The notes under the pieces are model-generated. The model was given only the letters and a program-made list of their open reading frames with translations, did not search any database and was not told where the DNA came from. Below, in pieces: positions 5,335 through 22,047 of a stretch of 64,000 nt of DNA. The stretch is from assembly GCA_964444145.1 (NCBI GenBank), contig CAYUFU010000002.1, positions 38,722 to 102,721 on the forward strand, in the 5' to 3' direction. Both the position numbers and the translations under genes were made by a program. The stretch comes from an uncultured Chitinophagales bacterium (lineage in GTDB: Bacteria; Bacteroidota; Ignavibacteria; UBA10030; UBA6906). Each line of letters opens with the position of its first letter. Position 1 is the stretch's first letter.

Positions 5335-5539
5335 GGGTCGGATCACAAGGGCACCACCCTCGATATTAGAAACACATTCTTGGTTTGAACCCCGAAGGGG
5401 GGCAATGATCTTTTTTGTCGAGTCTTGGTTTGTTCGCTTTGCGTAACTTCATTCAAACACTACCTCTCCGTCTCTTACGTATTGTCGTTTGTTGAATATG
5501 ATGATCGGCTTTGAAAAATTCTCGGACAAAGGTTCAGCG

Positions 5540-7290: not shown

Positions 7291-10200
7291 ATGAATAGTT
7301 TCTTGTTGCGCGCAATTATCACTTGTGTAATCATTGAATGTCTCAGGGACACAATGATCGGCCAAGACTCCTTCATCAACCAAACCCAAGCCGACGCCGA
7401 TCGCAAGAGCAAAGGCTGCATCACGTGCCACGGCGGTATCGAGCCGATGCACAAGAGCAGCGCAGTAAAGTTAGGTTGCATTGATTGTCATGGCGGCAAT
7501 CCGAACGCGACGATTGCCGACCTCGCGCATGTGCAGCCGCGATTTCCCGACCGGTGGAAAACATCGGCGAATCCCCCGCGGACCTACACGCTGCTGAACG
7601 AAGAGTATCCCGAATTCGTTCAGTTCGTGAACCCGGGGGATTTGCGTGTTGCCGATAAAGCGTGCGGACCCTGCCACAATACGACAAGCGATCCAATCGT
7701 GCGCAACGTGCAAAAAAGTTTGATGACGACCAGCGCGCTGCTCTGGGGAGGCGCGGCGTACAACAACGGCATCGTCTCAACGAAAAATTACATTCTCGGT
7801 GAAAGTTACAGTTGGGACGGCAAGCCGCAGAAGATCAACACGGTTCCGGTGCCGAGCGCAGAGGACATGAAGAACAAAGGCGTGCTTCCGTTCGTCGTGC
7901 CGCTGCCGCGCTGGGAGATTACGCAGCCGCCGGATAATTTCCGCAGCTTCGAGCGCGGCGGCAAAGTTCCGCGCATCAATCCGTCGGAGATTGGTATTCC
8001 GAACCCATTTGAAGAGCCGGGCAGACCCGACAATAAGTTGAGCGATCGCGGAACGGGAACGCAACTGCGCATCAGCTCGCCGGTGTTGAACATCCACAAG
8101 ACGCGTTTGAACGACCCTCATCTGTCGTTCATGGGAACGAACGACAATCCGGGTGACTATCGTTCGAGTGGATGCACAGGCTGCCATGTCGTGTACGCAA
8201 ACGATCGCTCGAATTTCAACGCGGGTCCGTACGCGGTGTTTGGCAATCGTGGACAAAGCAAAACCGCCGACACGACGATTTCGAAAAGAGAGTCAGGGCA
8301 TCCTATCAAACATCAATTCACACGGGCGATTCCCTCGTCGCAATGCATGAGCTGCCACATGCACCAGCCGAACGCGTTCGTCAACACGTATCTCGGCTAC
8401 CAAATGTGGGACTACGAAACGGATGCAGAGTTGATGTATCCGAAGCAGCAGAAGTATCCGTCGAATGCGGAAGCCTTTGCGATGCTTGCGAGGAATCCGG
8501 AGGAGGCAGTGCTGCGCGGCAACTGGAGTGACCAGGAGTTTCTTGCTAATGTTTCCTCGCTCAACCCGCAGCTTGCGCACTCGCAGTTCTCTGATTACCA
8601 TGGACACGGCTGGGTGTTTCGCGCCGTCTTCAAACGAGATCGGAAAGGAAATCTGCTCGACAAGGACGGCAAAGTCATTCCCGACAACGCGCCGTTCAAG
8701 TTCGACGGCGTCGTGCCTATCGAAGGCGTCACGCCGAAGACAATGAGCGCCGCAAGTCAGAGCGCGCAGAAAGCCGTGCATTTGAAAGACATTCATCTGG
8801 AAAAAGGAATGCACTGCGTTGATTGTCATTTCAAACAGGACGCGCACGGCGATGGAAAGTTGAAAGGCGAGTTCCACAACGCGGTCGAAATTCAATGCGT
8901 TGATTGTCACGGAACCATGAGTGCGAGGGCAACGCTGAAAACCTCTGGAGTTGCCGCGCCGGCGGGCGGCACGGACTTGACGCAAACATTCACACCATTT
9001 GGCGAACGGCGTTTTCGAAAAACCGCGACGAGTATCAGACAGCGGTCGACTCTCGTGGACACCTTGAGTTGGGAAATTCTCCAGACAGTGGACTCGCACA
9101 CATCGGGCGCAGCGGGATACAATAAGAAAGCTGAAGCCGCCCATCTGATGTTGAAGGACGGTACGATTGGCAAGCCGAATTCGCCTGAGGAGATGTTCGC
9201 CCATTCATACAAAAAAATGGAATGCCAAGCTTGCCACACCTCTTGGATTACGAATTGCTTCGGCTGTCATCTCCCGCAGCAAGCGAATTGGAAGAAACAG
9301 ATGAACCACTACGAAGGCGAGCTCTCGCGCAACTGGACGACATACAATCCACAAGTGCTGCGCGACGATGCGTATATGCTCTGCCTGACGGGCACAACGA
9401 AAGGAAGCAAGATCACGACGGCACGTTCATCGAGTGCGCTCGTCCTCAGTTCGGTGAACGCGAATCGCGAACAGATTTACATTCAGCAAGCGCCGATCTC
9501 ATCACCGGGGCACAGCAGTCAGGCGTTCAATCCGCATTTCTCGCATGCCGTCCGAGCAACCGAGACGAAGCAATGCACCGATTGCCACGTCTCGTCGAAG
9601 AACGACAATAACGCGTGGATGGCGCAGTTGCTTTTGCAAGGAACGAACTTCGTCAACTTCATCGGGAAGTATGCGTACGTTGCTGCGGGCGACGGCGGAC
9701 TCGAAGCGGTGCAAGTGACCGAGCAAGACGAGCCGCAAGCGGTGATCGGAAGTTATCTGCACAGCATTGCGTATCCGGATTATTACAAGGCGCATCTCGA
9801 CAATCGGAAGCAACTCCGAACTTCCTATCATCACAGCGGCAGCGCCTTGAGCGTGCAGTTGCGCGGCGAGTATCTGTACGCGGCGTGCGGCGAAGACGGG
9901 TTCCGCGTGTATGATGTCGCAAACGTGGATAACAAAGGGTTCTCCGAACGCATCGTCACGTCACCGGTATCGCCCTTCGGGCAGGACACGCACGTGAAGA
10001 CCCGTTTCGCAACCGCGGTCGCGCTCCCGACCAACATGCCGATTGACACGCGGCGAAGGTATCGTCCGGAAAACCAAGAGCAGGCGGTCGAGTATAACGG
10101 GAAACAACTCAATCTTCATCCGTCCTATAGCTACGCCTATATCACCGACAGATATGAGGGGTTGATTCTTGTTGATGTGATGAACCTCGTGGACGGAGAC

Positions 10201-11004
10201 CCCCGAAATAATTTCTTGGAGCGTGCGCTCACGTTCAATCCCAATGGGATCTTGAATGGTGCAGTGAATCTTGCGGTTGCGGGGAATTACGTTTATGTTT
10301 GCTGCGACCGCGGCGTCGTCATCGTCAGCATCGCAGATCCGATGAAGCCACGCGTTGCCGCCGAGATTCCGGCGCCTGCAATCACGAAGCCGAAAGCGAT
10401 TGCCATTCAATTCCGCTACGCGTTCGTCGTTGATGACCAAGGTGTGAAGGTGATTGACTTGACGTGGATGGATCAGCCGAAGCTCGTGAAGAGCGCCGTG
10501 GTTCCGCTGCAAGATGCGAATGATGTTTACGTTGCGCGAACGTACGCGTACGTTGCAGCCGGCGCTCAAGGGCTGGCGATTATTGACGTTGAAAATCCAG
10601 AAGCGCCGAGGCTTGAAAAGTTGTTCACAGCGGACGGCGCTATCACTGATGCGCAAGGAGTGAAAGTCGCCTCGACCAACGCGAGCCTGTTCGCGTACGT
10701 TGCCGATGGGAAAAATGGTTTGCGTGTCATTCAGCTCACGTCGCCGAAAACGCCCGGCTATTTAGGCTTCAGTCCGAAGCCCGTGCCGCAATTGATCGCG
10801 ACGATGCCGATGCGCGGCAGAGCGCTTGCTGTCTCGAAAGGGATGGATCGCGACCGCGCGGTGGACGAAAGCGGCAATCAGGTCAGCGTGTTCGGCAGGC
10901 TCGGCTCGCGCCCGTTCACGCACGATGAAATGCGGCAGATGTATTTGAAAGAGGGAAAGTTGTGGACTGTGACGGATGATGGGAGTGTTTCTCTCAAGAA
11001 ATGA
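7291..11004 (+). CDS. Decahaem c-type cytochrome fused to a C-terminal LVIVD-repeat beta-propeller (1237 aa)
   Basis: Ten CXXCH motifs in the first ~770 aa: CITCH, CIDCH, CGPCH, CTGCH, CMSCH, CVDCH x2, CQACH, CFGCH, CTDCH. The C-terminal ~450 aa consist of LVIVD-type repeats (YLYAACGEDGFRVYDVANVDN, YAYITDRYEGLILVDVMNL, YVYVCCDRGVVIVSIADPMKP, YAFVVDDQGVKVIDLTWMDQP, YAYVAAGAQGLAIIDVENPEAP, FAYVADGKNGLRVIQLTSPKTP). The N-terminus MNSFLLRAIITCVIIECL is hydrophobic (signal/anchor). Confidence 0.85.
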   Translation: MNSFLLRAIITCVIIECLRDTMIGQDSFINQTQADADRKSKGCITCHGGIEPMHKSSAVKLGCIDCHGGNPNATIADLAHVQPRFPDRWKTSANPPRTYTLLNEEYPEFVQFVNPGDLRVADKACGPCHNTTSDPIVRNVQKSLMTTSALLWGGAAYNNGIVSTKNYILGESYSWDGKPQKINTVPVPSAEDMKNKGVLPFVVPLPRWEITQPPDNFRSFERGGKVPRINPSEIGIPNPFEEPGRPDNKLSDRGTGTQLRISSPVLNIHKTRLNDPHLSFMGTNDNPGDYRSSGCTGCHVVYANDRSNFNAGPYAVFGNRGQSKTADTTISKRESGHPIKHQFTRAIPSSQCMSCHMHQPNAFVNTYLGYQMWDYETDAELMYPKQQKYPSNAEAFAMLARNPEEAVLRGNWSDQEFLANVSSLNPQLAHSQFSDYHGHGWVFRAVFKRDRKGNLLDKDGKVIPDNAPFKFDGVVPIEGVTPKTMSAASQSAQKAVHLKDIHLEKGMHCVDCHFKQDAHGDGKLKGEFHNAVEIQCVDCHGTMSARATLKTSGVAAPAGGTDLTQTFTPFGERRFRKTATSIRQRSTLVDTLSWEILQTVDSHTSGAAGYNKKAEAAHLMLKDGTIGKPNSPEEMFAHSYKKMECQACHTSWITNCFGCHLPQQANWKKQMNHYEGELSRNWTTYNPQVLRDDAYMLCLTGTTKGSKITTARSSSALVLSSVNANREQIYIQQAPISSPGHSSQAFNPHFSHAVRATETKQCTDCHVSSKNDNNAWMAQLLLQGTNFVNFIGKYAYVAAGDGGLEAVQVTEQDEPQAVIGSYLHSIAYPDYYKAHLDNRKQLRTSYHHSGSALSVQLRGEYLYAACGEDGFRVYDVANVDNKGFSERIVTSPVSPFGQDTHVKTRFATAVALPTNMPIDTRRRYRPENQEQAVEYNGKQLNLHPSYSYAYITDRYEGLILVDVMNLVDGDPRNNFLERALTFNPNGILNGAVNLAVAGNYVYVCCDRGVVIVSIADPMKPRVAAEIPAPAITKPKAIAIQFRYAFVVDDQGVKVIDLTWMDQPKLVKSAVVPLQDANDVYVARTYAYVAAGAQGLAIIDVENPEAPRLEKLFTADGAITDAQGVKVASTNASLFAYVADGKNGLRVIQLTSPKTPGYLGFSPKPVPQLIATMPMRGRALAVSKGMDRDRAVDESGNQVSVFGRLGSRPFTHDEMRQMYLKEGKLWTVTDDGSVSLKK

Positions 11005-11111: not shown

Positions 11112-11146
11112 AAAAACAATATCGAATATTGAACAAGGAATGTCGG
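11112..11146 (+). repeat. Cassette repeat, copy B (AAAAACAATATCGAATATTGAACAAGGAATGTCGGA)
   Basis: Direct repeat of copy A, 107 bp downstream. Overlaps the TTG-initiated 5' end of ORF 11129..11566. Confidence 0.55.
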
Positions 11147-11155
11147 ATTTTTCAA

Positions 11156-11566
11156 ATGAGGACGGTGATGGATTCGAGACAGAAGCGACAGTTTGATCTC
11201 GAAGAGCGGCTCATTGATTTTTCCTGCATGATCATTGACATCGTCGAGGCGCTCCCCGATACGAAAGTAGGCAATCATGTAGCGGGACAGATTCTGCGGT
11301 CTGGAACTTCACCTGCGCCGAATTATGCCGAAGCGACGAGCGCGGAATCGCGACAGGACTTCATTCACAAGATGAAAGTTTCGCTCAAGGAGTTTCGTGA
11401 GACGAACGTGTGGCTCAAAGTCATAAAGCGAAGAGCCCTTATCAAGCCTTTGGAAAAAATGGAGATTGCGCTGACCGAATGCCGCGAACTCATTTCGATT
11501 TTCGTAACGAGCATCGCGACAGCGAAACGAAATCTGAGGACAATCCCGAGGGCAAGTTCCAAATGA
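11156..11566 (+). CDS. Four-helix-bundle protein (TIGR02436-like, the family encoded inside 23S rRNA intervening sequences)
   Basis: MRTVMDSRQKRQFDLEERLIDFSCMIIDIVEALPDTKVGNHVAGQILRSGTSPAPNYAEATSAES...KMKVSLKEFRETNVWLKVIKR matches the conserved layout of this family. A paralogue lies at 17150-17590. ORF-track start 11129 is TTG; ATG at 11156 preferred. Confidence 0.7.
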   Translation: MRTVMDSRQKRQFDLEERLIDFSCMIIDIVEALPDTKVGNHVAGQILRSGTSPAPNYAEATSAESRQDFIHKMKVSLKEFRETNVWLKVIKRRALIKPLEKMEIALTECRELISIFVTSIATAKRNLRTIPRASSK

Positions 11567-12588
11567 AGTTCACCGGCACTTCGATATTCAATATTCGTCA
11601 TTCCTTGTTCGATATTGCTCTTATCCTTTTTGCGTTGTGGGGCGATGCTTTTGCACAAGGAAAATACCAAACGCTTGGTCCTTCCGGCTGCGGCATCGGT
11701 CAGGACAAGTGCCACGCGACCGAAAACGGACAGATGATCAAGCAGCACAAGAACTCCGCAACAAGTATTGCCGATGGAGAAAATTCACAAAAGTACGCGG
11801 ACGCGCTCGGCGTGAAAGAGTTTCTCCAAAGCCCCCAGTGCATGAATTGCCATGGAACGATTATTTCCGGCAAAGAAGGGAAGGAAGTCGAAGAAGGGGT
11901 GAGTTGCGAGAGTTGTCATGGCGCGGGAAGCGGCTACAAAGATCCGCACTCCGAAGGCCCGAAAGGTAGTGAAGGACAGCCTCGTCCTGGCTACACAAAA
12001 AGCCTCGCGCTGGGACTTGCCGATTTGAAGAAGCCGGAAGAGATAGCAAAAGCATGCGTGCGTTGTCACTACACGACGGATCAAAGACTTATCAGCGCAG
12101 GCCATCCCGATGGTGCCAAGTTTGCCTACAAGTCGAAAATGAAGGATGTAGCGGAGCACTGGAGGTACCGCGACAAAAAGAATGTTCCCGAAGGAGCGGT
12201 ATTCAAAGCAGCGATGGATCGTCGGGCGCCGGGCGCGAAATTCTCTCAGACGCCCAAGCCGGTTGCCCAGCAGGCTCCTGCGCAGCCACCGGTAAAAAGT
12301 CCAGCGCCGACTCCCCAAAAGCCGACTCCGCAAAGTGTTGACGTCACTGCGCCGCCGTTGCAGAAGCAGAACATCGGCGATCAGCCCGCGCCAACGCCGC
12401 GCGTGCGTAAGCCACCACCACCGCCTACACCTGTTGCCGCCGATCGCGACGCTGATCCCCCGCCGACTCCGGCCGAACTGAAAGATCTGCCGCCGTTTCC
12501 GGCGATCACCGAGAGCACGCGCGTTGATCGCATGCTGTTGTTGCTGAAAAAAAGGTTGGAGCTACTCTACACGAAGACAAAAAACTGA
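11563..12588 (+). CDS. Small exported c-type cytochrome (3 canonical CXXCH plus one CX6CH-like site) with a Pro-rich C-terminal tail
   Basis: Signal peptide MKFTGTSIFNIRHSLFDIALILFALWGDAFAQG. Haem motifs CMNCH, CESCH, CVRCH, plus CGIGQDKCH. Tail PKPVAQQAPAQPPVKSPAPTPQKPTPQ...KPPPPPTP. ORF-track start 11410 overlaps the four-helix-bundle gene in another frame and is rejected. ATG 11563 yields the signal peptide. Confidence 0.75.
   Translation: MKFTGTSIFNIRHSLFDIALILFALWGDAFAQGKYQTLGPSGCGIGQDKCHATENGQMIKQHKNSATSIADGENSQKYADALGVKEFLQSPQCMNCHGTIISGKEGKEVEEGVSCESCHGAGSGYKDPHSEGPKGSEGQPRPGYTKSLALGLADLKKPEEIAKACVRCHYTTDQRLISAGHPDGAKFAYKSKMKDVAEHWRYRDKKNVPEGAVFKAAMDRRAPGAKFSQTPKPVAQQAPAQPPVKSPAPTPQKPTPQSVDVTAPPLQKQNIGDQPAPTPRVRKPPPPPTPVAADRDADPPPTPAELKDLPPFPAITESTRVDRMLLLLKKRLELLYTKTKN
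11577..11620 (-). repeat. Cassette terminal repeat, copy C (inverted relative to A/B); lies inside the signal-peptide coding region of the 11563 cytochrome
   Basis: Reverse complement GAGCAATATCGAACAAGGAATGACGAATATTGAATATCGAAGTG matches copy A at both ends. Confidence 0.6.
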
Positions 12589-12816: not shown

Positions 12817-12831
12817 AAATAATTCGTGATT

Positions 12832-14460
12832 ATGTCACTCGGTCAAACACAACTCAAACGTCTCGAACAGTATAAGGATCGTTGGACGTCATTCGGCGCA
12901 ACGACGGGCATCATCGAGCTGTCCGAAAAACCGACGCCTGAAGTCTTGAAACGCTTCGAGATCTTCAAAAGCTACGACGACAAATTCCTCGAGAAGATTT
13001 CGCCTGACGTTTCGGTTGCGCGATGGAAAGCAGGAACGGTGCTGTTCGAAGAGGGAAGTTATCTTGATCTTGCGTTCTTCGTTTTCTCGGGGACGGTGGA
13101 TGTGTATTTGGAAAAAACGCGAGGCACGCCATCACCTATTTTCGACCGTGGTAAAACACGAGTGATTACGGCTCCTCTTGAAGGCGGCACGCGCCCGACA
13201 TCGCCGCAGCGAACGATGTTCATGACGCAAGTCGGCAAGCAAGAACGCGCGACAGGGCAAATCACCTTTCTCGCTGCGATGGATTTCAATTTGCCGGCGG
13301 CAGCAACGATGCGGTTGGGCACAGGAGAGATGTTTGGTGAAATCGGCGCGCTGAGCGGCTGGCCCCAATCCGTCACCGCCAAAACTGCGAGCGAGTGCGT
13401 GCTCGTGCAAATCCGCACGGCGGCACTGCGACTCATGCGCAAACGCTCGAGTGCCCTCAAGCAGCGTCTCGACGCATTATACAAAGAACGCTCGCTGATC
13501 GCGCAGTTGCAGGCGACCCCGCTCTTTCGGGCTGCAAGCGAGTCGTTCATTCGCGCCGTTGCAGAAAAAGTTGACCTTGTCTCCTGCGAGCCGGACGATG
13601 TGCTGACGCGTGAGGGCGAACCGTGCGACGCGCTCTATTTGGTGCGCAGCGGTTTCATAAAACTCTCCCAGAAAGTGGGAGAGGGTGAGATTGTCGTCTC
13701 GTACCTTTCGAAAGGAAGTACACTCGGCGATGCGGAATTGTTGCTCGAGGGAAATCCTGGCTGGCTCTTCACGGCATCGTCGAAAGAGTATTCGGAGCTT
13801 GTCAAAATCCCGCGCACAGAATTCCAGAATCTCATGACGCAAAGCCCCGGTGCTGAGCGCATGTTGTGGGAATCCGTTGTTGCGCGTGTCAAGGAATCGG
13901 GCTTCAATCGGAAGAACATCGGGCAAGCGGAGTTTCTTTCCACCGCAATCAACAAAGGCTTGGTGGAAGGCAACAGCATGCTCGTCATTGATCTCAATGT
14001 TTGCACGCGTTGCGATGACTGTGTGCGCGGCTGTTCGGATACACACGGCGGCATACCGCGTTTCGTGCGCGAAGGGGACAAGGTTGGTAACTTTCTCGTT
14101 ACGCGTTCGTGCTACCATTGTCAAGACCCCGTCTGCTTGGTTGGCTGCCCGACGGGAGCAATACGGCGGACGGACGTCGGCGACGTTGTTGCCATCGAGG
14201 ATAACCTTTGCATCGGGTGCGCGTCATGCGCCAACAATTGTCCCTACGACGCGATCGTGATGCACAACGTCGGCGGCATGTGGCCCAGCGACATGATCCC
14301 CGAAGGGTTGCGCGGAAAAGAGAAAACACTCGCGACAAAATGCGATTTATGCTACAAGGACCCGGCGGGTCCCGCCTGCGTGCGCAGTTGTCCGCACGGC
14401 TGTGCAGTGCGTGTCGGCGACGTGCAGGAATTTCAATCGCTGCTCTGGAAGGAAGTGTGA
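12832..14460 (+). CDS. Two cyclic-nucleotide-binding (cNMP) domains fused to an NrfC/PsrB/HybA-like ferredoxin with four [4Fe-4S] clusters
   Basis: cNMP domain 1: GTVLFEEGSYLDLAFFVFSGTVDVY...GEMFGEIGALSGWPQSVTAKTASECVLVQI. cNMP domain 2: DDVLTREGEPCDALYLVRSGFIKL...LGDAELLLEGNPGWLFTASS. Four Cys clusters: CTRCDDCVRGC, CYHCQDPVCLVGCP, CIGCASCANNCP, CDLCYKDPAGPACVRSCP. No Tat or signal peptide, so predicted cytoplasmic. ORF-track start 12826 is GTG; ATG at 12832. Confidence 0.8.
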   Translation: MSLGQTQLKRLEQYKDRWTSFGATTGIIELSEKPTPEVLKRFEIFKSYDDKFLEKISPDVSVARWKAGTVLFEEGSYLDLAFFVFSGTVDVYLEKTRGTPSPIFDRGKTRVITAPLEGGTRPTSPQRTMFMTQVGKQERATGQITFLAAMDFNLPAAATMRLGTGEMFGEIGALSGWPQSVTAKTASECVLVQIRTAALRLMRKRSSALKQRLDALYKERSLIAQLQATPLFRAASESFIRAVAEKVDLVSCEPDDVLTREGEPCDALYLVRSGFIKLSQKVGEGEIVVSYLSKGSTLGDAELLLEGNPGWLFTASSKEYSELVKIPRTEFQNLMTQSPGAERMLWESVVARVKESGFNRKNIGQAEFLSTAINKGLVEGNSMLVIDLNVCTRCDDCVRGCSDTHGGIPRFVREGDKVGNFLVTRSCYHCQDPVCLVGCPTGAIRRTDVGDVVAIEDNLCIGCASCANNCPYDAIVMHNVGGMWPSDMIPEGLRGKEKTLATKCDLCYKDPAGPACVRSCPHGCAVRVGDVQEFQSLLWKEV

Positions 14461-15299
14461 TGCCAAAGTCACTACTCAGATCAATCCCTCTGGACAAGCT
14501 CGTCCGCTCTCCCGATTGGGCGGCGGGATTGCTTATCGCAAGCCTCGTGCTCGGCGCAATGTACGCACTGAACGCGTACCTTGACGAAATCAATCCGGGT
14601 AACTGGTGGGGCTTGACGTACGGCTGGCTTTCGGCGCTGCTCATGCTTGGCGCGGGTTTGTATGGCGTGCGACGAAGAATGTTAAACCGCAACATTGGCA
14701 ACTCAAAAGTCTGGGTACAGTTTCATATTTACGGGGGCTTGCTCGCGGGTTTGCTTTTCTTGTTTCATACCGGCTTTCGTTTTCCGAGCGGTCTGTTCAA
14801 TTGGCTGCTCTGGCTGCTCTCGGTTTGGGTGACGGTCAGCGGCGTCATCGGCGTCGTGTTGCAGCGATGGATTCCGCGCATTCTTGCGTCGGGACTTTCG
14901 ACCGAAGCGGTGTACGAGCGCATTCCTGAACTCATCGGGCACGTACGCGAGCGAGCCGAGAAACTTGCGAGTTCCTGTACGATGCCTGTGCAGGATTTTT
15001 ACCGCGCGACGCTCGCAGCGGAGTTCGCCATGCCGCGTCCGCGCCTCATTTATTATTTCGACGTGACCGGGGGGATTCAGTCGTGTATCAGACGCTTCGA
15101 GTTTCTTCGCCGCGTCCTCTCGGTCGAGGAGAAAGAAAAGCTCGATAGCTTACAAGACATGTATCGAACGAAATTGGAATTGGATGCACATTACTCGCTG
15201 CAGACTGCATTGCGGTGGTGGCTCTTCTCGCACGTGCCGCTCTCGCTTGTACTGCTGCTGATGATCGCACTGCATGTTTGGGCAGTGTGGTATTACTAA
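14460..15299 (+). CDS. Integral membrane protein (5 predicted TM helices, His-rich), candidate b-type cytochrome-like membrane anchor
   Basis: Start ATG overlaps the upstream TGA (gtgATGcc), i.e. translational coupling. Helices AAGLLIASLVLGAMYALNAYL, WWGLTYGWLSALLMLGAGLYGV, VWVQFHIYGGLLAGLLFLFHTGF, LFNWLLWLLSVWVTVSGVIGVVL, WWLFSHVPLSLVLLLMIALHVWAVWYY. His residues sit inside helices 3 and 5. Haem ligation is inference only. Confidence 0.65.
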   Translation: MPKSLLRSIPLDKLVRSPDWAAGLLIASLVLGAMYALNAYLDEINPGNWWGLTYGWLSALLMLGAGLYGVRRRMLNRNIGNSKVWVQFHIYGGLLAGLLFLFHTGFRFPSGLFNWLLWLLSVWVTVSGVIGVVLQRWIPRILASGLSTEAVYERIPELIGHVRERAEKLASSCTMPVQDFYRATLAAEFAMPRPRLIYYFDVTGGIQSCIRRFEFLRRVLSVEEKEKLDSLQDMYRTKLELDAHYSLQTALRWWLFSHVPLSLVLLLMIALHVWAVWYY

Positions 15300-15434: not shown

Positions 15435-17051
15435 ATGCCAAACTCAAAAGACGAAAACAGAACCAAAGGCACCTTCAGCGACGTGCGCATGCCCGTCGCG
15501 AGAACATACATTAGACCGCTCTCGCGCAAGCTGATGATGACTCTCGGCGGCATTGTTTGTGGAGTCGTTGTTGCCTACTATGCCGTTGACTCCCTGCTGT
15601 TGAAGAATACATTCATTGCGAGCGGTCCGGTGGCGGCGAGCCACGCCAACTTCGAGAGCGAATGCGCGAAGTGCCATACGCCGTTCCGCGGCGTGAACGA
15701 TAGCAGGTGCACGACCTGTCATGAGAAGACGAACGACAAGTTGGGGGTATATTCCTTCGCCGCGCATTACCTGTACCGATCGGCAATGCCTGCGCGTATT
15801 GCCGATGCAAAGCAGAAACACGGCGCAGATGAGAAAATGTGCGCTGCTTGTCACCCCGATCATAAGGGACGCAACGCAAGCATCACCGTCGTGACAGATG
15901 CGAAATGCGCCACGTGCCACTACTCCTCGTTCAATGACGATCATCCTGAGTTTGAGTTTGCACGCACGAATGCCGTGGACGATTCGACCTTGAAGATGAC
16001 CCATGTAAAGCACACAAAAGAAGTATTGAAGGAACTTAATACGGCGAACATCGAAACCGCCTGTCTCTATTGCCACAATCCGATGGCGGATGGGAAAGCC
16101 TTCAAGCCGCTCGACTTCGACATGCACTGCGGCGATTGCCACCTCACGGCGAATACGGCATCCGCGTCGCTGACGATTCGCGACCCAAGCAATCCCAGTG
16201 CTCTCGGCGTCGAGACGTTGGAGATGATTCAACAACGAAGAGGTCCCGGCACGCGTTGGGCATTCTATACGAACCCAAACGAATTTACTATTACCGGCTC
16301 GCGCGTACAGAAAGCTCCCGTCTATCATCGCGATCCGTGGATTCTTGAAAACCTCAAAAGGATTCGCTCGATGCTCTACACGGAGGTCGGCCTCTCGGAT
16401 TTGTTGAATGCCGCAGGTGCCGGAGCGGAGAAGGGCAATCAGCAGTCGTATAACGAGGCGATTCAAACGCTCCGCGAGTATGTCACCGGCTTGCGCCCTC
16501 GTCCAGAAAAAGAAATTCAACAGGAGCTTACGACGATTGATTCCTTGTTGGATGTTGCGTCGCGCGTTGTGAATACGCCGGCAGTGACGCTCTCTGATTC
16601 GCTCTTTCGCATAACGGTGCGCATGGAAAACCCAAGCCTCACGGCGCAACAGAAGCAGGATATTTCGGATTTCGGCGAGAAGCTCGCGAAGCCGTGCCTC
16701 GAGTGTCATTACGTTGAGCGTGCGGCGATTCTTGGCGTGAAGGCGATCCAGCGAACGTTTTCGCGTGCCGAGTTCGATCATCGCGCGCATATTACGCAGC
16801 GCCGCTGCCTCGAATGCCATGACGTAATACCGATTGACGATGCGCTGTCGGACGATTCACTCGCAGTTACACGAGCCGCCGCGAAGATTCCGACGCTTGA
16901 TATCGCAGCGACACACAATATTCCGAAAAAAGAAAACTGCATCGAGTGTCATACAGCAGGCGCAGGGTCGAATGAATGCATCACATGCCACTTCATGCAT
17001 CCGAACAAAACGCAGCGCGGGAGTTTACAACTATTCGTTTCTAAGCCCTGA
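15435..17051 (+). CDS. Membrane-anchored decahaem c-type cytochrome
   Basis: N-terminal TM helix MMTLGGIVCGVVVAYYAV. Ten CXXCH motifs: CAKCH, CTTCH, CAACH, CATCH, CLYCH, CGDCH, CLECH x2, CIECH, CITCH. Confidence 0.85.
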   Translation: MPNSKDENRTKGTFSDVRMPVARTYIRPLSRKLMMTLGGIVCGVVVAYYAVDSLLLKNTFIASGPVAASHANFESECAKCHTPFRGVNDSRCTTCHEKTNDKLGVYSFAAHYLYRSAMPARIADAKQKHGADEKMCAACHPDHKGRNASITVVTDAKCATCHYSSFNDDHPEFEFARTNAVDDSTLKMTHVKHTKEVLKELNTANIETACLYCHNPMADGKAFKPLDFDMHCGDCHLTANTASASLTIRDPSNPSALGVETLEMIQQRRGPGTRWAFYTNPNEFTITGSRVQKAPVYHRDPWILENLKRIRSMLYTEVGLSDLLNAAGAGAEKGNQQSYNEAIQTLREYVTGLRPRPEKEIQQELTTIDSLLDVASRVVNTPAVTLSDSLFRITVRMENPSLTAQQKQDISDFGEKLAKPCLECHYVERAAILGVKAIQRTFSRAEFDHRAHITQRRCLECHDVIPIDDALSDDSLAVTRAAAKIPTLDIAATHNIPKKENCIECHTAGAGSNECITCHFMHPNKTQRGSLQLFVSKP

Positions 17052-17149: not shown

Positions 17150-17590
17150 ATGGAATACACAAAACTCAGAAACAAGAATCGCGGCTACATGAAGTTGGAT
17201 GTGTGGCAAAAGGGAATCGTGCTGTTCCAGCTCGTTTGGAATCTCATCACGAAAGCAAAAGTAGATTTTAAGCTGCGGTCACAAATCGCCAATGCTGCTC
17301 AAGGGATTTCATCCAACATCGCGGAAGGCTATAGCAGACGCTCGGTAAAGGAGTATCTTCAATTCTTGTATGTTTCTCTCGGCTGTCTTTCTGAAACGCT
17401 CACGAGGTCTGTGGGGCTAAAAGTGATAAACCAAATCTCTGAAGACGAGTTCAATCAGATTGACGTTTTGCATTATGAAATTGAAAACAAACTGTGGCGA
17501 TTGGTCGAAAGTTTAGGGCGGAAGAAAGACGATGGCACGTGGAGCGATCGCGTCTCAGAGGATTTATCGGAATACCCAACAATCCAATAA
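17150..17590 (+). CDS. Four-helix-bundle protein (TIGR02436-like), second copy
   Basis: MKLDVWQKGIVLFQLVWNLITKAKVDFKLRSQIANAAQGISSNIAEGYSRRSVKEYLQFLYVSLGCLSE carries the family signatures LDVWQK, NIAEGY and EYLxFLxxSxGSLxE. Alternative start at M14 (17189). The C-terminal codons overlap the right repeat arm. Confidence 0.75.
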   Translation: MEYTKLRNKNRGYMKLDVWQKGIVLFQLVWNLITKAKVDFKLRSQIANAAQGISSNIAEGYSRRSVKEYLQFLYVSLGCLSETLTRSVGLKVINQISEDEFNQIDVLHYEIENKLWRLVESLGRKKDDGTWSDRVSEDLSEYPTIQ

Positions 17591-17635: not shown

Positions 17636-18538
17636 ATGAAAGCGCGTCTCTTTTGTAAAACAGGCCAGCTCGCCGGCGCGAGCTTCGAGATTGGGACGGA
17701 CGCGATGATCGGCAAGAGTGCCGAATGCGTGATTCAACTCTACCCGCAGTTGATCTCGTCGCGCCATGCGCGCATTTATTTTGACGAAAAAGCGCAGAGC
17801 TATTTTCTCGAAGACCTCAATAGCCGTAATGGAACGAAATTAGACGGCACTCGTGTCAAAACAAAGGAGCGGCTCGGCTCGCTGCACGTGATTACGCTCG
17901 CGAACACGTTCGATTTTCTTTTCCAAGTGATTGACGAGAGCCAACAGATCGCAGCGCCGAAGGGTGAGCCTGCAAAACCAGCGACGCTCAAAACAGAGTT
18001 GGGGAGCGGCTACGTGCCACAGCAAACGCCGCCCCCCGCAATGCAGCAGGTTGCACCGAAAACCGTAATGAGCGACGAGCCATTGGCGAACGCTCCGCTC
18101 GCGTCTCACTCGCGGGAGAAAACGATTTTCGAGAACGATGCAATTCCCGTCTTTCGACAACCGAAGGAACAGGAGAAACGAGCCGACGCGAAGATTCCAG
18201 AAGAGAGTATCCCCACCCCCATGCCTCGTCCGCAGACGCCCGCAGCAAAACCTATCACCTTTGCAGTGGTAGTGGACTCGACGGGAAAATCCTACGAACT
18301 CAACGAAGGCTCGACCATTGTCGGCAGAGACGCATCGTGCGGCATCTGCATCGAACATGGCTCGGTCTCGCGCAAGCACGCGGAGTTGCTGCTCAAAGGC
18401 GGCAAGTTGACCGTCAAAGATTTGGGGAGCAAGAATCATACATTCATCAACGATCAGAAAATCAAAGTTGAGACGGAAATCCACGAGGGCGTAACGCTGA
18501 CCTTTGGCGTGGTGAGGGCGCGGGTGGTTAAGGCCTGA
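17636..18538 (+). CDS. Protein with two FHA domains separated by a Pro/Ala-rich linker
   Basis: FHA 1: IGKSAECVIQL...SSRHARIYFDEKAQSYFLEDLNSRNGTKLDG. FHA 2: TIVGRDASCGICIEHGSVSRKHAELLLKGGKLTVKDLGSKNHTFINDQKI. Both carry the G-R...S-R/H...N-G-T/hydrophobic signature. Confidence 0.8.
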   Translation: MKARLFCKTGQLAGASFEIGTDAMIGKSAECVIQLYPQLISSRHARIYFDEKAQSYFLEDLNSRNGTKLDGTRVKTKERLGSLHVITLANTFDFLFQVIDESQQIAAPKGEPAKPATLKTELGSGYVPQQTPPPAMQQVAPKTVMSDEPLANAPLASHSREKTIFENDAIPVFRQPKEQEKRADAKIPEESIPTPMPRPQTPAAKPITFAVVVDSTGKSYELNEGSTIVGRDASCGICIEHGSVSRKHAELLLKGGKLTVKDLGSKNHTFINDQKIKVETEIHEGVTLTFGVVRARVVKA

Positions 18539-18904: not shown

Positions 18905-19681
18905 ATGAGACAGACACACACGGCAATCGTTACGATGGTTGCTCTCTTGCATTGCCTGACAGCGGCGCAGCCGAGCGGCAAATCTTCGACACCCAACAAG
19001 GAAACACCGAAACCTGTCCCCGACGGCATGGCGCTGGTCGAGGGAGGCTGGTTCCACATGGGACGCAACGAGGTTCTTTCTGAACCGGGGTATCGAGTAT
19101 ACGTCAGGTCGTTCTTCATGGACAAGCACGAAGTGACTGTTGGACAGTACCGCAAGTTTTGCGATGCGACGGGGCGAGCGATGCCAGCCGATCCTTCATG
19201 GGAAACGAGCGATGATCATCCGATTGTCAATGTCTCATGGGATGACGCAAACGCGTATGCACGCTGGGCAGGCAAGCGGCTGCCGACAGAAGCCGAGTGG
19301 GAATATGCCGCAAGAGGTGGGAACAAGAGCCGCGGCTTCAGGTATAGCGGCGGCAAAACGCTGGATGAGATTGCATGGTATCACGCCAATGCAAACGATC
19401 AAGCGCATCCTGTCGGCGAAAAGCAACCGAATGAGTTGGGCTTGCACGATATGAGCGGCAACGTCCATGAATGGTGTGCGGACTGGTACGACCCGAACTA
19501 TTACACGAAAAGCCCAGCGGAAAATCCGAAAGGACCGACGAGCGGTACGACGCGCGTTGTACGTGGTGGGTCGTTTGGCGGCGGTGGGCTTGAATATGAT
19601 CCGTATGAAGTGTCCCAGCGGTTCGATGAAAAGCCAACGACCAAGGGAGAGAATTGGGGCTTTCGATGTGTCAAAGACTAA
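18905..19681 (+). CDS. Secreted formylglycine-generating-enzyme (FGE/SUMF1, PF03781) family protein
   Basis: Signal peptide MRQTHTAIVTMVALLHCLTAAQPSG. Motifs HEVTVGQYRKF, WDDANAYARWAGKRLPTEAEWEYAARGG, GNVHEWCADWY, RVVRGGSF. Confidence 0.8.
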   Translation: MRQTHTAIVTMVALLHCLTAAQPSGKSSTPNKETPKPVPDGMALVEGGWFHMGRNEVLSEPGYRVYVRSFFMDKHEVTVGQYRKFCDATGRAMPADPSWETSDDHPIVNVSWDDANAYARWAGKRLPTEAEWEYAARGGNKSRGFRYSGGKTLDEIAWYHANANDQAHPVGEKQPNELGLHDMSGNVHEWCADWYDPNYYTKSPAENPKGPTSGTTRVVRGGSFGGGGLEYDPYEVSQRFDEKPTTKGENWGFRCVKD

Positions 19682-19701: not shown

Positions 19702-22047
19702 ATGCCCGATGTGCAATACACCCCCGACGGCTCTCTCATTCTGAGTGAGTCTGTCCAGATTCCCGACATCCTCGACCTTCTCGTCGTTGGGGGCGGACCG
19801 GCGGGCACTGCCGCAGCGTTTCGCGCGAAGGAACTCGGCTTGAGCACGCTCGTGATTGACTACGACGATCTCATGAAGCGCATCCGCGATTACCCGAAAG
19901 ACAAACTCATTCTTCCCGACTTCGGCGGCGGCGATCAGATGCGCTTTCCAAAAGGCGGCGACTTGATCACGGCGCTCCATTTTTCTCCTCTCGACAAAGA
20001 TGAAATGGTGAATGAGTGGAAGCGCTTGTACGTTACCTACAACGTGCCCGCCCAAGTCGGCATCGAGTTGTTGGGTTTGACCCCACGGGGCGGTGGCGTT
20101 TGGGAAGTGAAGACGTGGAACCACAACATCAAGAAAGAGCAGCAAGTGCTCGCGAGGCATGTCGCCATCGGCATCGGGCGCGGTGTGCCGCGCCGGTTCG
20201 ATATTCCCGGCAATACCGATGGCATCGCCTATCGTCTCGATGATGCGCTTGCGTATGTCGGTTCGCCGTCGCTCGTCATCGGCGGCGGCACGTCTGCGGC
20301 GGAAGCGGTGATTACAATCTCCAATGCTAAAGCAAAGTTCAACGACACCTCGGCAGTGTATTGGTCGTATCGCAGCGAGAAACTGCCGAAAGTGTCGAAG
20401 GCACTCGCCGATGTGTTCTTCGAGGCATATATCGGCAACGGCAACATTCGCTATTATCCCAACAGCGAGCCTGTTGCAGTCGTGACTGCGGACGACAAGA
20501 AGGATTATTTATCGCTTCGCGTCGATCGGAAACTGATTGCCGGCAGGCCGAACGAGACGCTGCATCTCGAATTTCCGAAGGAGTCTTGTATCGCGTGCAT
20601 CGGCGAAGATATACCGGAGACGTTTCTGAATTCGTTGGGCATCAACATGGTGACCGGCGGGGCGGCGAACAAAAAGCGGATGTGCGTAACGCCGTTGCTC
20701 GAAACGCAACAGCCGAACGTCTATCTGATCGGCGACATTCTTTCGCAAGCGTATCTTGAAACGGAAAACTTCGCCGCCGATCCGGCGACGTTCAACGAGG
20801 TGAAGCATCGCGGCAACATCAAAGCCGCGCTTGTGGATGGCGTGCTTGTCGCGGAAGTTGTGGCGCAGCGTGTCGCGGGAAAGAAGGAGATTGATGTGAA
20901 GATAGACTTCATCGAGGAAGTGAGCGGTCCTCGGCAGCCGGTGACACCAAATCCGGTAACACGCATTCTCACGGTGCCACCCGGTATGAAGCAAGCCGAG
21001 GTCGTCCAGCCGGTCGAGCAGAATCGCGCTTATCTTGCGCGCATCATCGTCGGCAGTGTGGAAGGCGAAGAATTCCCGGTCGCGATGAATGGCATCACCA
21101 CCATCGGCAAGAAATTCTGCGATATCGTTTTCCCAGATGATCCGTTTCTCTCCGATCGGCACGCCTCGATTGTGCACGGACCCGATGGCTTCTTCATCCG
21201 TGACGACGGGAGCGAATCCGGCGTCTTCGTCCGTGCAACAGAGGGCAAGTCCATCGAAGTTTCCTCCAGCGATTTGGTGCGGGTGGGGAAGCAGTTTCTC
21301 CTGTTTCGCAATGATGAAAACGGCGCTGTCTTCAGTCAATTCGACGCGGTCGGGAAGTTCGTCAAATTATTTCCTCTCAAAGAGAACACCATCGTGGTCG
21401 GTCGCGACGCTCCCGACATCACGCTCGATACGAAGGACTTGACCTTGTCCCGCAGGCATCTCGCGATCTCTCTGAAGCAAGGAAGAATCTCCATCAAAGA
21501 TTTGAAGAGCGTCAACGGCACCTACCTCAAGGTGCGCAACATGCTGCGCATCGAGCCGGAGGATATTTTCCGTGTCGGTGGCCAGACGTTCAAGCTGCTC
21601 GTGCGTCAAGAGCGTTCGACGAAGTCCATCCGCATTACGACATCTCCCCTTGTACGTGGCGACGTGACACCGCGCGAGACGCATGTGCAGGCGGAGCCTC
21701 CCGGTGCGGCGAAGCCTGCTGCTCCAGCCACTCCCGTTGCTGCACCGGCAGCGACGGGAAATGTCATCGTCTTCAAGAATGTTGGGAAGACACTCGCATT
21801 TGCGCCGGGAGAGACGATTTGCAGCGTTGCAGAGAAAAACGGCATTAAGATCGTTGCCGAGTGCCATGCAGGGATTTGCGGCAGCGATCCGATCAGAATC
21901 ATTTCGGGCGGCGACAAACTCAACGCGATGAGTGCAGCAGAGAAAGAAGCGTTAGAGGATATTTGCGGTCTCAGCACAACCGACCATCGCCTTGCCTGTA
22001 TGGCGAAGCCGACGGGAAGCGTGGAAGTGGAAATTGTCAAGGGGTGA
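19702..22047 (+). CDS. Multidomain fusion: FAD/NAD(P)-binding oxidoreductase, two FHA domains and a C-terminal [2Fe-2S] ferredoxin-like domain
   Basis: N-terminus LDLLVVGGGPAGTAAAF (dinucleotide fold), second GGG site SLVIGGGTSAAEAV, GD motif VYLIGDILSQ. FHA 1: ARIIVGSVEGEEF...SDRHASIVHGPDGFFIRDDGSESGVFV. FHA 2: TIVVGRDAPDITLD...SRRHLAISLKQGRISIKDLKSVNGTYL. Ferredoxin part: ICSVAEKNGIKIVAECHAGICGSD...CGLSTTDHRLACM. Confidence 0.8.
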   Translation: MPDVQYTPDGSLILSESVQIPDILDLLVVGGGPAGTAAAFRAKELGLSTLVIDYDDLMKRIRDYPKDKLILPDFGGGDQMRFPKGGDLITALHFSPLDKDEMVNEWKRLYVTYNVPAQVGIELLGLTPRGGGVWEVKTWNHNIKKEQQVLARHVAIGIGRGVPRRFDIPGNTDGIAYRLDDALAYVGSPSLVIGGGTSAAEAVITISNAKAKFNDTSAVYWSYRSEKLPKVSKALADVFFEAYIGNGNIRYYPNSEPVAVVTADDKKDYLSLRVDRKLIAGRPNETLHLEFPKESCIACIGEDIPETFLNSLGINMVTGGAANKKRMCVTPLLETQQPNVYLIGDILSQAYLETENFAADPATFNEVKHRGNIKAALVDGVLVAEVVAQRVAGKKEIDVKIDFIEEVSGPRQPVTPNPVTRILTVPPGMKQAEVVQPVEQNRAYLARIIVGSVEGEEFPVAMNGITTIGKKFCDIVFPDDPFLSDRHASIVHGPDGFFIRDDGSESGVFVRATEGKSIEVSSSDLVRVGKQFLLFRNDENGAVFSQFDAVGKFVKLFPLKENTIVVGRDAPDITLDTKDLTLSRRHLAISLKQGRISIKDLKSVNGTYLKVRNMLRIEPEDIFRVGGQTFKLLVRQERSTKSIRITTSPLVRGDVTPRETHVQAEPPGAAKPAAPATPVAAPAATGNVIVFKNVGKTLAFAPGETICSVAEKNGIKIVAECHAGICGSDPIRIISGGDKLNAMSAAEKEALEDICGLSTTDHRLACMAKPTGSVEVEIVKG

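Follow-up and report, generated by a model that had tools for sequence, protein, structure and literature searches.

Why should a single bacterial polypeptide unite a flavoprotein, two phosphopeptide-recognition modules and a ferredoxin, and what could such a protein do in the cell? This question is raised by a stretch of 64,000 nucleotides, hereafter the window, from an uncultured Chitinophagales bacterium placed by GTDB in the Ignavibacteria (assembly GCA_964444145.1, contig CAYUFU010000002.1, positions 38,722 to 102,721 of the forward strand). One of its genes, here called J, had been picked out in an earlier note, made from the letters alone, as a 781-residue fusion of a disulfide-reductase-like flavoprotein, two phosphothreonine-binding forkhead-associated (FHA) domains and a 4-Cys ferredoxin. 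The open reading frame (ORF) lies exactly where it had been placed, on the plus strand from 19702 to 22047 with an ATG start. The analysis described here shows that J belongs to a real, uncharacterised protein family found in six or more bacterial phyla, and that it is not a stand-alone enzyme, being the last gene of a conserved multihaem-cytochrome operon. From a functional perspective, we regard it as an even bet that J lets electrons from NAD(P)H into a trans-envelope conduit at its cytoplasmic end, and that contacts between phosphothreonines and FHA domains gate this entry. The parts come from known families, namely thioredoxin reductase (TrxR)-like ferredoxin reductases, FHA phospho-switches and transmembrane cytochrome complexes; what makes the protein a good target for experiments is their combination, the breadth of this combination across phyla and the fact that it is wholly uncharacterised.

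The fusion is genuine, because an identical protein and full-length orthologues come from independent assemblies. In a word-indexed search of 5.8 billion proteins, an identical 781-residue protein is on record, and the best 120 matches are all full-length orthologues (752-814 residues, 55-98% identity, about 99% coverage) drawn from independent NCBI, JGI, ENA and Logan assemblies and from several phyla. Moreover, an exhaustive profile-free search of 1.84 billion cluster representatives returned 124 clusters below 1e-30, about thirty of them full-length, and a relative of J is encoded in 112 genomes of a one-genome-per-species collection. The possibility that separate genes were run together into one long ORF by faulty assembly or a frameshift could draw on shorter proteins of a representative library, such as P0178 (374 residues, FHA-FHA-Fer2) and P0220 (371 residues, flavoprotein only, 32% identity). 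It is ruled out by the identical protein and by the independent orthologues, in which the frame is not split, and its probability is practically nil. The 80 genomes that were examined among the 112 are all metagenome-assembled genomes (MAGs) of Ignavibacteriota, Bacteroidota (mostly Rhodothermales), KSB1, Zixibacteria, Acidobacteriota (Thermoanaerobaculia and Holophagales) and Gemmatimonadota, and none of the 80 belongs to a cultured organism. In some MAGs two copies of J stand on different contigs (L024 and L030 in JAKEEU01, L063 and L065 in JBGCEN01), so that duplication within the genome is possible. Public databases name the protein only "FHA domain-containing protein" or "FAD-dependent oxidoreductase", and the automatic annotation of IMG shows three COGs side by side. 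The suspicion that the architecture was undescribed has held, as full-text literature searches retrieved no description of the J fusion or of its operon.

All the modules read from the sequence pass the Pfam cutoffs: Pyr_redox_2 over residues 25-347 (4.6e-17, 62.8 bits against a cutoff of 26.1), Pyr_redox_3 over residues 27-213 (3e-15), FHA in two stretches (2e-20, 73.4 bits against 20.7) and, narrowly, Fer2 over residues 695-771 (22.6 bits against a gathering score of 21). No NCBIfam family scores above its cutoff, the nearest being FhaB/OdhI for the FHA part and YpdA (TIGR04018) for the flavoprotein part. The AlphaFold2 (AF2) model has a mean predicted local distance difference test (pLDDT) score of 83.7, and low confidence is confined to the cluster loop 722-725 and to the linkers 410-438 and 652-682, which are disordered in the model. 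The resulting organisation is as follows.

19702..22047, plus strand: J, 781-residue flavoprotein-FHA-FHA-ferredoxin fusion with an ATG start (ORF, Pfam, orthologues, AF2 model).
19702..20901, plus strand: J residues 1-400, flavoprotein of the thioredoxin-reductase (two-dinucleotide-binding) fold, YpdA-like, without redox-active cysteines (Foldseek, alignment).
21025..21342, plus strand: J residues 442-547, FHA1, partly degenerate (Pfam FHA, beta-sandwich in the AF2 model).
21358..21642, plus strand: J residues 553-647, FHA2, with the canonical phosphothreonine-binding set (Pfam FHA at 564-626).
21757..22044, plus strand: J residues 686-781, plant-type ferredoxin fold with C707...C721-x4-C726-x2-D729...C766 (Pfam Fer2, profile match to PDB).

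What kind of flavoprotein is it? In a Foldseek comparison with the PDB, the best matches of the N-terminal part are YpdA/Bdr (7a76, 2.4e-19), the TrxR-like ferredoxin-NADP reductases 6gar, 6gas, 3ab1 and 3lzw, and TrxR itself, all at 15-21% identity. Residue conservation was counted in an alignment of 98 orthologues drawn from the best 120 matches. Both dinucleotide-binding motifs, GGGPAG (30-35) and GGGTSAAE (194-201), are invariant, as is R224, which occupies the position of the NADPH 2'-phosphate motif. The CxxC that defines thioredoxin reductases is absent from the NADPH domain, whose matching segment (residues about 150-190) holds no cysteine at all, and J is therefore ruled out as a bona fide thioredoxin reductase. 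The only CxxC of the flavoprotein, C296/C299, belongs to a predicted strand in the FAD domain and varies slightly, its cysteines being kept in 91/98 and 97/98 sequences. A bacillithiol disulfide reductase is likewise ruled out, since the Cys of the YpdA motif GGPCG is missing (at position 34 the 98 sequences have 86 Ala, 11 Gly and 1 Thr) and the TIGR04018 score, 61.1 bits, falls far under the curated cutoff of 339.9. The earlier description of the module as disulfide-reductase-like is right for the fold alone, since a redox-active disulfide is lacking. A strongly conserved segment, residues 56-130, is partly common to YpdA and contains the invariant K59, R62, D63, K68, P72, G75, G76, D78, F82 and P83. 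TrxR-like ferredoxin-NADP reductases (FNRs) have no CxxC and hand single electrons to ferredoxins or other iron-sulfur proteins. J likewise shows a TrxR fold without CxxC and with both dinucleotide motifs present, and this combination of motifs and cysteines is the state of that group. Members of the group also stack an aromatic side chain of a C-terminal subdomain on the flavin and show NAD(P)H:ferredoxin activity.

A ferredoxin fold is in fact fused to the other end of the chain. The profile of the 98 orthologues matches plant-type [2Fe-2S] ferredoxins over residues 678-768, with Ferredoxin-4 (9i2a) at E 4.5e-9 and with the FeSII (Shethna) protein, and "CHAGICGSD" of J aligns over "CREGECGTC". 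Because the match is to solved [2Fe-2S] ferredoxins, the fold can be taken as settled. The predicted ligand set is less usual. C707, C721, C726, D729 and C766 are each present in 98/98 sequences, with the spacing C721-x4-C726-x2-D729-x36-C766 as against the canonical C-x4-C-x2-C-x(about 29)-C; an invariant Asp thus stands at the position of the third cysteine, and the extra invariant Cys707 lies upstream, in helix 1. Asp at this ligand position is found in the [2Fe-2S] centre of Escherichia coli SdhB. The C-terminus is accordingly read as a ferredoxin fold with a probable Cys3-Asp or ligand-swapped set, and the label "4-Cys ferredoxin" is approximate: four cysteines are indeed invariant, but they are not the canonical C-x4-C-x2-C-x29-C set. 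The binding of an iron-sulfur cluster is putative, given the marginal Fer2 score, the Asp at ligand 3 and the low confidence of the cluster loop.

The two FHA domains that lie between these redox modules are not equivalent. In FHA2, G567, R568, S583, R584, H586, S603, N605 and G606 are each conserved in 98/98 sequences, and the phosphopeptide-contact signature (Gly-Arg, Ser-x-x-His, Ser-x-Asn-Gly) is complete in all of them; by profile comparison the domain resembles the FHA domains of OdhI/GarA/FhaB. In FHA1, the conserved columns are G469 (98/98), S484 (89/98) and H487 (96/98), position 470 is Arg in 74 and Lys in 12 of the 98 sequences, and position 506 is Asn in 25 and Thr in 59. The protein of the window has Lys470 and Ser506 there, so that the phosphothreonine-binding set of residues, which would be expected in both FHA domains as the earlier note had them, is complete in FHA2 and partly lost in FHA1. 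The linkers hold semi-conserved threonines, one at alignment position 421 (68/98) and T647 (64/98).

The meaning of such a protein becomes clearer from the genes before it, as J ends the long co-directional cluster X1-X2-A-C-D-E-F-H-J. The cluster and the genes inserted into it are listed here.

3745..5334, plus strand: X1, 529 residues, lipoprotein-like, with a pair of HbpS/GlcG-like domains (two Pfam HbpS-like stretches, 1.4e-29).
5489..7234, plus strand: X2, 581 residues, signal peptide, ending in ...AFTY, putative outer-membrane beta-barrel (our own reading of the sequence only).
7291..11004, plus strand: A, 1237-residue decahaem cytochrome with signal peptide and an LVIVD/choice-of-anchor-B beta-propeller region (Pfam LVIVD, cytochrome c3/c7).
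11129..11566, plus strand: 23S rRNA-intervening-sequence protein (PF05635), first copy, inserted between A and C (Pfam 23S_rRNA_IVP; the two copies score 1.2e-19 and 7.7e-13).
11410..12588, plus strand: C, c554-like tri/tetrahaem cytochrome, start codon uncertain (Pfam Cytochrome_C554).
12826..14460, plus strand: D, cytoplasmic protein with two cyclic-nucleotide-binding (CNB)/CAP-fold domains and a HycB/NrfC-type four-cluster [4Fe-4S] module (Pfam cNMP_binding twice, Fer4_9/11).
14460..15299, plus strand: E, 279-residue protein with five transmembrane segments (TM), putative dihaem cytochrome b (H89-x13-H103 and H258-x13-H272 invariant).
15435..17051, plus strand: F, decahaem c-type cytochrome with one N-terminal TM anchor and a conserved cytoplasmic tail (Pfam Cytochrome_C7/c3).
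17150..17590, plus strand: 23S rRNA-intervening-sequence protein (PF05635), second copy, inserted between F and H (Pfam 23S_rRNA_IVP).
17636..18538, plus strand: H, 300 residues, two FHA domains joined by a disordered linker (Pfam FHA twice, 3.6e-35).
18905..19681, plus strand: FGE-sulfatase-domain protein with signal peptide, inserted between H and J (Pfam FGE-sulfatase, 1.1e-57).

Synteny was examined by tblastn of the operon proteins against 80 genome loci and contigs fetched by exact look-up, and one order of genes is kept throughout, whether in Ignavibacteriota or in Acidobacteriota and Gemmatimonadota. In the 59 distinct loci with at least 5.5 kb 5' of J, E is present upstream in 56, F in 55, D in 50, H in 49 (directly 5' of J in 49/59) and C in 47. 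A is seen in 26/59, a count limited by the 10-kb flank, and it is syntenic wherever the flank extends that far. In KSB1 the halves of the operon are permuted (E-F-H-J-X1-X2-A-C-D), and for this reason X1 and X2 are counted as members of the set. Both are conserved with the operon across phyla; X1 adjoins X2-A in 10 KSB1-type loci, and X2 is always directly 5' of A. KSB1-type loci contain X2 in full; in Ignavibacteria-type loci it is seen at the edge, as fragments of the C-terminal part. X2 has no Pfam or NCBIfam match. Ten CXXCH motifs are found in A in 18/21 orthologues, with a weak ExtM-like match (96 bits against a cutoff of 800), and three or four in orthologues of C.

The remaining genes of the cluster are not part of this conserved set. 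The two 23S rRNA-intervening-sequence protein genes, the first of which overlaps the ORF start of C, are absent from all related loci and behave like lineage-specific mobile insertions. The FGE-sulfatase gene between H and J is found in L001, from the same organism, and is absent from the other related loci; the lineage with this insertion also lacks the phosphatase and kinase pair that is described below. A scan of the operon for promoters and terminators gave results no better than shuffled sequence. The PADLOC anti-phage defence models matched none of J, H and E, and matched D only through generic CNB-domain hits, so that these models give no support to J as a component of a defence system. 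Beyond J, at 23312-24793 on the minus strand, lies a gene for an alpha/beta hydrolase of PETase/chlorophyllase-like type. Its C-terminus is a weak Por_Secre_tail (type IX secretion), which fits a window from the FCB group (Ignavibacteriota).

Three of the syntenic genes would link the cytoplasm to the periplasm. D matches HycB in the PDB (7z0s_B, 1e-15), as well as HycB3 of HDCR and NrfC, and carries four conserved Cys motifs; it is a cluster wire of the HycB/NrfC type without a catalytic domain. Its two CNB/CAP-fold domains lack, as we read the sequence at residues about 160-200 and 290-320, the canonical phosphate-binding Arg and have an invariant "GWPQS.TA" instead; for this reason the label "cAMP-gated" was not adopted, and the effector of D may be something other than a cyclic nucleotide. 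E has no relative in Pfam, NCBIfam or PDB sequence searches. It is nonetheless widespread (228 matches at E <= 0.001) and confidently modelled by AF2 (pLDDT 94). In an alignment of 57 sequences H89, H103, H244, H258 and H272 are invariant, giving one H-x13-H pair on TM3 and another on TM5. Cytochrome b of bc1 complexes spaces its four haem ligands in this way. On our reading of the positive-inside rule, one His of each pair would lie near each membrane face, and E may represent a new family of dihaem transmembrane cytochrome b. F has ten CXXCH in 56/59 orthologues, and its cytoplasmic tail bears a conserved KKG-F...L...Y..P..R before the TM. No FHA-fused relative is found among the best 120 matches of F listed, which are all unfused orthologues; PDB sequence searches with F, as with E, gave nothing useful. 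Taken as a set, the cytoplasmic D, the membrane protein E and F with its periplasmic decahaem part are arranged like transmembrane redox complexes of the Hmc/Tmc/Dsr class. Since D has no catalytic domain, J would be the only operon product able to link the chain to a soluble cytoplasmic carrier.

From these elements a path for the electrons can be proposed. NAD(P)H would be oxidised at the flavin (FAD) of J, and single electrons would pass through the [2Fe-2S] cluster of J (liganded by Cys/Cys/Asp/Cys or with the participation of C707) to the four [4Fe-4S] clusters of D. From D they would cross the membrane through the two b haems of E and reach the c haems of F, C and A and finally an extracellular acceptor, with X2 as the putative passage through the outer membrane. 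Outward flow would be thermodynamically easy, regenerating NAD(P)+ and dissipating membrane potential. The outward direction is preferred here because the potential of NAD(P)H is too low for NAD(P)+ reduction by inward electrons against the membrane potential; and because outward flow would dissipate that potential, heavy regulation and tight switching would be expected.

The same components could be run in the opposite direction, with the conduit taking electrons from an extracellular or periplasmic donor and J acting as a terminal reductase, from [2Fe-2S] to flavin and on to some small molecule, for instance the disulfide of a low-molecular-weight thiol. YpdA/Bdr and the Hmc/Tmc/Dsr complexes would be the analogues. 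YpdA/Bdr is the best match in both sequence and fold, and the motif "I..YP" after the first Rossmann strand is found in both; the conserved residues 56-130 could form a substrate site. Moreover, ferredoxin-dependent enzymes of the TrxR fold exist (6xtf), and it is textbook knowledge from the Fdn/Nar redox loops that a dihaem cytochrome b with inward electrons builds membrane potential. Electron uptake has also been proposed for a cluster of Ferrigenium by the authors who described it (bioRxiv 10.64898/2026.01.22.701106). Inward flow nevertheless appears quite unlikely to us. The Cys that is essential in genetic studies of YpdA is Ala or Gly in J, and the TIGR04018 score is far under its cutoff. 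Furthermore, the NADPH domain lacks a CxxC, the pair C296 and C299 falls within a predicted strand and is not kept in every sequence, and a fully conserved NADPH-type motif would be superfluous in a purely ferredoxin-driven enzyme.

How, then, would electron entry at J be switched? Part of the answer may lie downstream. Neighbours were counted in the 61 loci with at least 2.5 kb 3' of J, using tblastn with the PknB kinase domain and the PstP PP2C domain as queries. A PP2C phosphatase and/or a Hanks-type Ser/Thr kinase is found within 6 kb downstream of J in 34/61 loci: the kinase in 28/61, the kinase together with PP2C in 14/61, and PP2C on the same strand 0-115 nt after J in 20/61 (395 nt in one, L027). 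Pfam identified PP2C_2 in L006 and L019, and Pkinase with PEGA, that is, a receptor-type kinase, in L006 and L040; in L006 the start of the PP2C gene overlaps the stop codon of J. In two loci, L019 and L037, J and PP2C form a pair by themselves, apart from the cytochrome genes, and therefore the link of J to the phosphatase is at least as tight as its link to the conduit. In L006 (12540-17589) and L040 (12651-16830), J is followed by PP2C, by a Pkinase with extracytoplasmic PEGA and by two CsgG-like lipoproteins with TPR repeats; this PP2C/kinase/CsgG-like extension is seen in Ignavibacteria-type and Zixibacteria loci. As a conserved downstream extension of the locus, it suggests an input from envelope sensing.

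Candidate targets are found in H. Its linker (residues about 100-215), otherwise unconserved, contains up to three motifs of the form [KR]-T-hydrophobic-x-[D/E/G]-[D/E], at T120, T163 and the column of residue 185; T163 is kept in 54/56 sequences, and the +3 residue is D/E in 35/54. The pT-x-x-D/E motif is a classical ligand of FHA domains, and those of the H linker are candidate phospho-acceptor and FHA-ligand sites. FHA1 of H best matches FHA1 of J, and FHA2 of H best matches FHA2 of J, so that the two proteins appear to carry paralogous FHA tandems. In the proposed mechanism, the kinase would phosphorylate the [KR]-T-x-x-[D/E] sites of the H linker, and possibly Thr residues in the linkers of J, and PP2C would reverse this. 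The canonical FHA2 domains of J and of H would bind those phosphothreonines, J would be docked on or released from the D-E-F complex, and electron entry would be switched. In the present organism the kinase/phosphatase pair, which is not adjacent, would act from elsewhere if at all. The proposal that phospho-signalling is coupled to a redox protein is thus supported by the downstream PP2C and kinase genes and by the conserved FHA2 set.

Could the FHA domains instead serve for assembly alone, keeping J and H on the membrane complex without the need for phosphate, with the neighbouring kinase and phosphatase serving other targets? Such an assignment, which would be compatible with the electron-entry model, is favoured by the window and its closest relative L005, which have no adjacent kinase or phosphatase, by the missing Asn of FHA1 in most members of the J family, and by the cytoplasmic tail of F, which is conserved and has no conserved Thr. 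From textbook examples, GarA and OdhI bind their enzyme targets without phosphate. We consider it decidedly improbable all the same, as every phosphate-contacting residue of J FHA2 is retained in the 98 orthologues, translational coupling joins PP2C to J in many loci and the two remain together even where the conduit genes are not beside them, and the TxxD/E motifs are conserved in a linker of H that is otherwise not.

The abundance of signalling parts around J, with four FHA domains, PP2C, a receptor kinase and two CNB-fold domains, raises a different alternative, in which J is a redox sensor and signal transducer: the NAD(P)H/NAD(P)+ ratio, or else the redox state of the conduit, would be sensed by its flavin and iron-sulfur cluster, and the FHA domains together with the kinase/phosphatase would pass on the resulting change of conformation. 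The FeSII/Shethna protein, among the closest solved relatives of the C-terminus, is a redox-switched [2Fe-2S] protein; J-PP2C pairs occur without adjacent conduit genes in L019 and L037; and ferredoxin-reductase-like regulators are known, for example ThnY (PMC3771892). A sensor is nonetheless unlikely in our judgement, since the conduit requires a cytoplasmic electron donor or acceptor and no operon product other than J could serve as such, both dinucleotide-binding motifs are retained in 98/98 sequences as expected of a working enzyme, and the gene order groups J with structural redox subunits in nearly all loci.

The reading of J as a gated electron-entry module is carried by several lines of evidence: the fusion architecture with its conservation and operon synteny across phyla; the invariant GGGTSAAE and R224, the lack of CxxC and the ferredoxin fold in J; the two invariant H-x13-H pairs in E and the 10 CXXCH each in F and A; and PP2C/kinase genes 3' of J in 34/61 loci, a canonical FHA2 in 98/98 and the TxxD/E motifs in the H linker. 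Other observations count against it. The cofactors, substrate, partners and phosphosites of J are all predicted, and the direction of electron flow rests on a thermodynamic argument. The Fer2 match is marginal (22.6 against 21), the third Cys is an Asp and the cluster loop is of low confidence in the model. With regard to signalling, FHA1 in this protein is without the phosphothreonine-binding Arg and Asn (Lys470 and Ser506 instead), and FHA domains do not always need phosphate to bind a partner, GarA/OdhI with their enzyme targets being the example. Furthermore, 27/61 loci are without an adjacent kinase or phosphatase, and tblastn with the PknB and PstP queries found neither in the 64-kb window; Pfam confirmed the matches of these queries in three loci only (L006, L019, L040).

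Partial precedents for both the enzyme and the complex are available. The TrxR-like FNRs (YumC of Bacillus subtilis, 3lzw; the FNR of Chlorobaculum tepidum, 3ab1; FNR1/2 of B. cereus, 6gar/6gas) have in common with J the two-Rossmann TrxR fold, FAD/NAD(P)H motifs, the lack of CxxC and an iron-sulfur partner. J differs from them by its low identity (15-19%), the extra conserved segment 56-130, the fusion to a putative ferredoxin and two FHA domains, and its location in a cytochrome operon. YpdA/Bdr (7a76, 7a7b; TIGR04018), the best sequence and structure match, has the common motif following the first beta-alpha-beta unit, whereas J scores 61 bits against a cutoff of 340, has Ala/Gly for the Cys of GGPCG and bears the additional FHA and Fer2 domains. 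NAD(P)H flavoproteins fused to a plant-type Fer2 are known in the phthalate dioxygenase reductase class, in benzoate dioxygenase reductase (1krh), GbcB and NdmD, the last two being weakly matched by the Fer2 domain of J. These oxygenase reductases use the FNR fold (FAD_binding_6/NAD_binding_1) and four Cys ligands and have no FHA, whereas J has the TrxR fold. FeSII and 9i2a, the closest solved relatives of the C-terminus, have full Cys4 ligands, unlike J with its Asp at ligand 3 and its extra invariant Cys in helix 1. The theme of fusing FHA, iron-sulfur and TrxR-fold modules recurs, because other such fusions exist, for instance P0259 (1384 residues, FHA x5 with a 4Fe-4S dicluster and Pyr_redox_3). 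In P0187, a Pkinase is fused to a segment homologous to J residues 307-724.

As regards regulation, OdhI/GarA are the closest named families to the FHA parts described here. In Actinobacteria, they are an example of FHA and a Ser/Thr kinase/phosphatase pair controlling a redox enzyme complex, 2-oxoglutarate dehydrogenase, with a Thr-containing disordered segment as the phospho-switch. They are, however, small single-FHA proteins acting in trans on soluble dehydrogenases, whereas here the FHA domains are fused into J and duplicated in the neighbouring H. As for the complex, Hmc/Tmc/DsrMKJOP of sulfate reducers likewise combine a periplasmic multihaem cytochrome, a membrane cytochrome b and a cytoplasmic iron-sulfur protein to move electrons across the inner membrane, and weak matches to HmcA, DsrJ and DsrO are found in the operon, with no subunit reaching its family cutoff. 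The operon differs from them in having a flavoprotein-ferredoxin instead of an HdrD-like partner and in the addition of outer-membrane parts and phospho-regulation.

The nearest parallel comes from iron oxidisers, in a preprint and in one table entry of a pangenome study, the only related items among the literature retrieved. In Ferrigenium straubiae, a "novel membrane-associated nonahaem cytochrome c" with a cytosolic FHA is encoded beside a 5-TM protein without recognisable motifs and a cytosolic [4Fe-4S] protein (bioRxiv 10.64898/2026.01.22.701106, section 6.3.2). The cluster is expressed under all tested conditions, its function is called unknown by the authors, and FHA domains together with multihaem cytochromes were according to them previously unreported (bioRxiv 10.64898/2026.01.22.701106). 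In the pangenome of Gallionellaceae, cluster 403 is a 10-CXXCH "Forkhead-associated protein" present in 27/87 iron oxidisers (PMC9900912). Compared by description only, these clusters have the same layout as D-E-F-H, with a 1-TM multihaem cytochrome, a 5-TM protein, a cytosolic [4Fe-4S] protein and FHA, and in the window F, E and D are the 1-TM 9-10-haem cytochrome, the 5-TM partner and the cytosolic [4Fe-4S] protein encoded together. In Ferrigenium the cytochrome itself bears the FHA, and neither description includes a flavoprotein-ferredoxin partner, whereas here FHA is found in the separate genes H and J. E looks like the same kind of protein as the motif-less scaffold of the Ferrigenium preprint.

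What would this locus mean for the organisms that carry it? We propose, tentatively and with more doubt than confidence, that it represents an unrecognised and phylogenetically wide type of conduit (Ignavibacteriota, Bacteroidota/Rhodothermales, KSB1, Zixibacteria, Acidobacteriota, Gemmatimonadota). This conduit would have its own NAD(P)H-oxidising flavoprotein-ferredoxin entry bypassing the quinone pool, switched by a receptor Ser/Thr kinase and PP2C through FHA docking, with an unusual Cys3-Asp or ligand-swapped [2Fe-2S] cluster and a new dihaem cytochrome b family. Hanks-type signalling would here be seen for the first time to gate respiratory or extracellular electron transfer directly. 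A good understanding of extracellular electron transfer is limited to a few Proteobacteria and Firmicutes and, to our knowledge, electron transfer across the envelope is largely unknown in abundant uncultured phyla of sediment and soil such as Ignavibacteriota, KSB1, Zixibacteria, Acidobacteriota and Gemmatimonadota. The operon would escape tools of the FeGenie type, as its nine proteins all stay under the curated family cutoffs. J being a soluble single chain, its flavin, iron-sulfur and phosphopeptide binding can be examined without culturing these organisms. If the proposal is true, the operon would provide a new set of marker genes for metal or electrode respiration in these phyla and a conduit that taps NAD(P)H directly. 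For the first time, too, FHA domains fused to a redox protein would be seen to build bacterial Ser/Thr phospho-signalling into an electron-transfer chain, and the operon would offer a testable function for the unexplained FHA-cytochrome cluster of the iron-oxidising Gallionellaceae.

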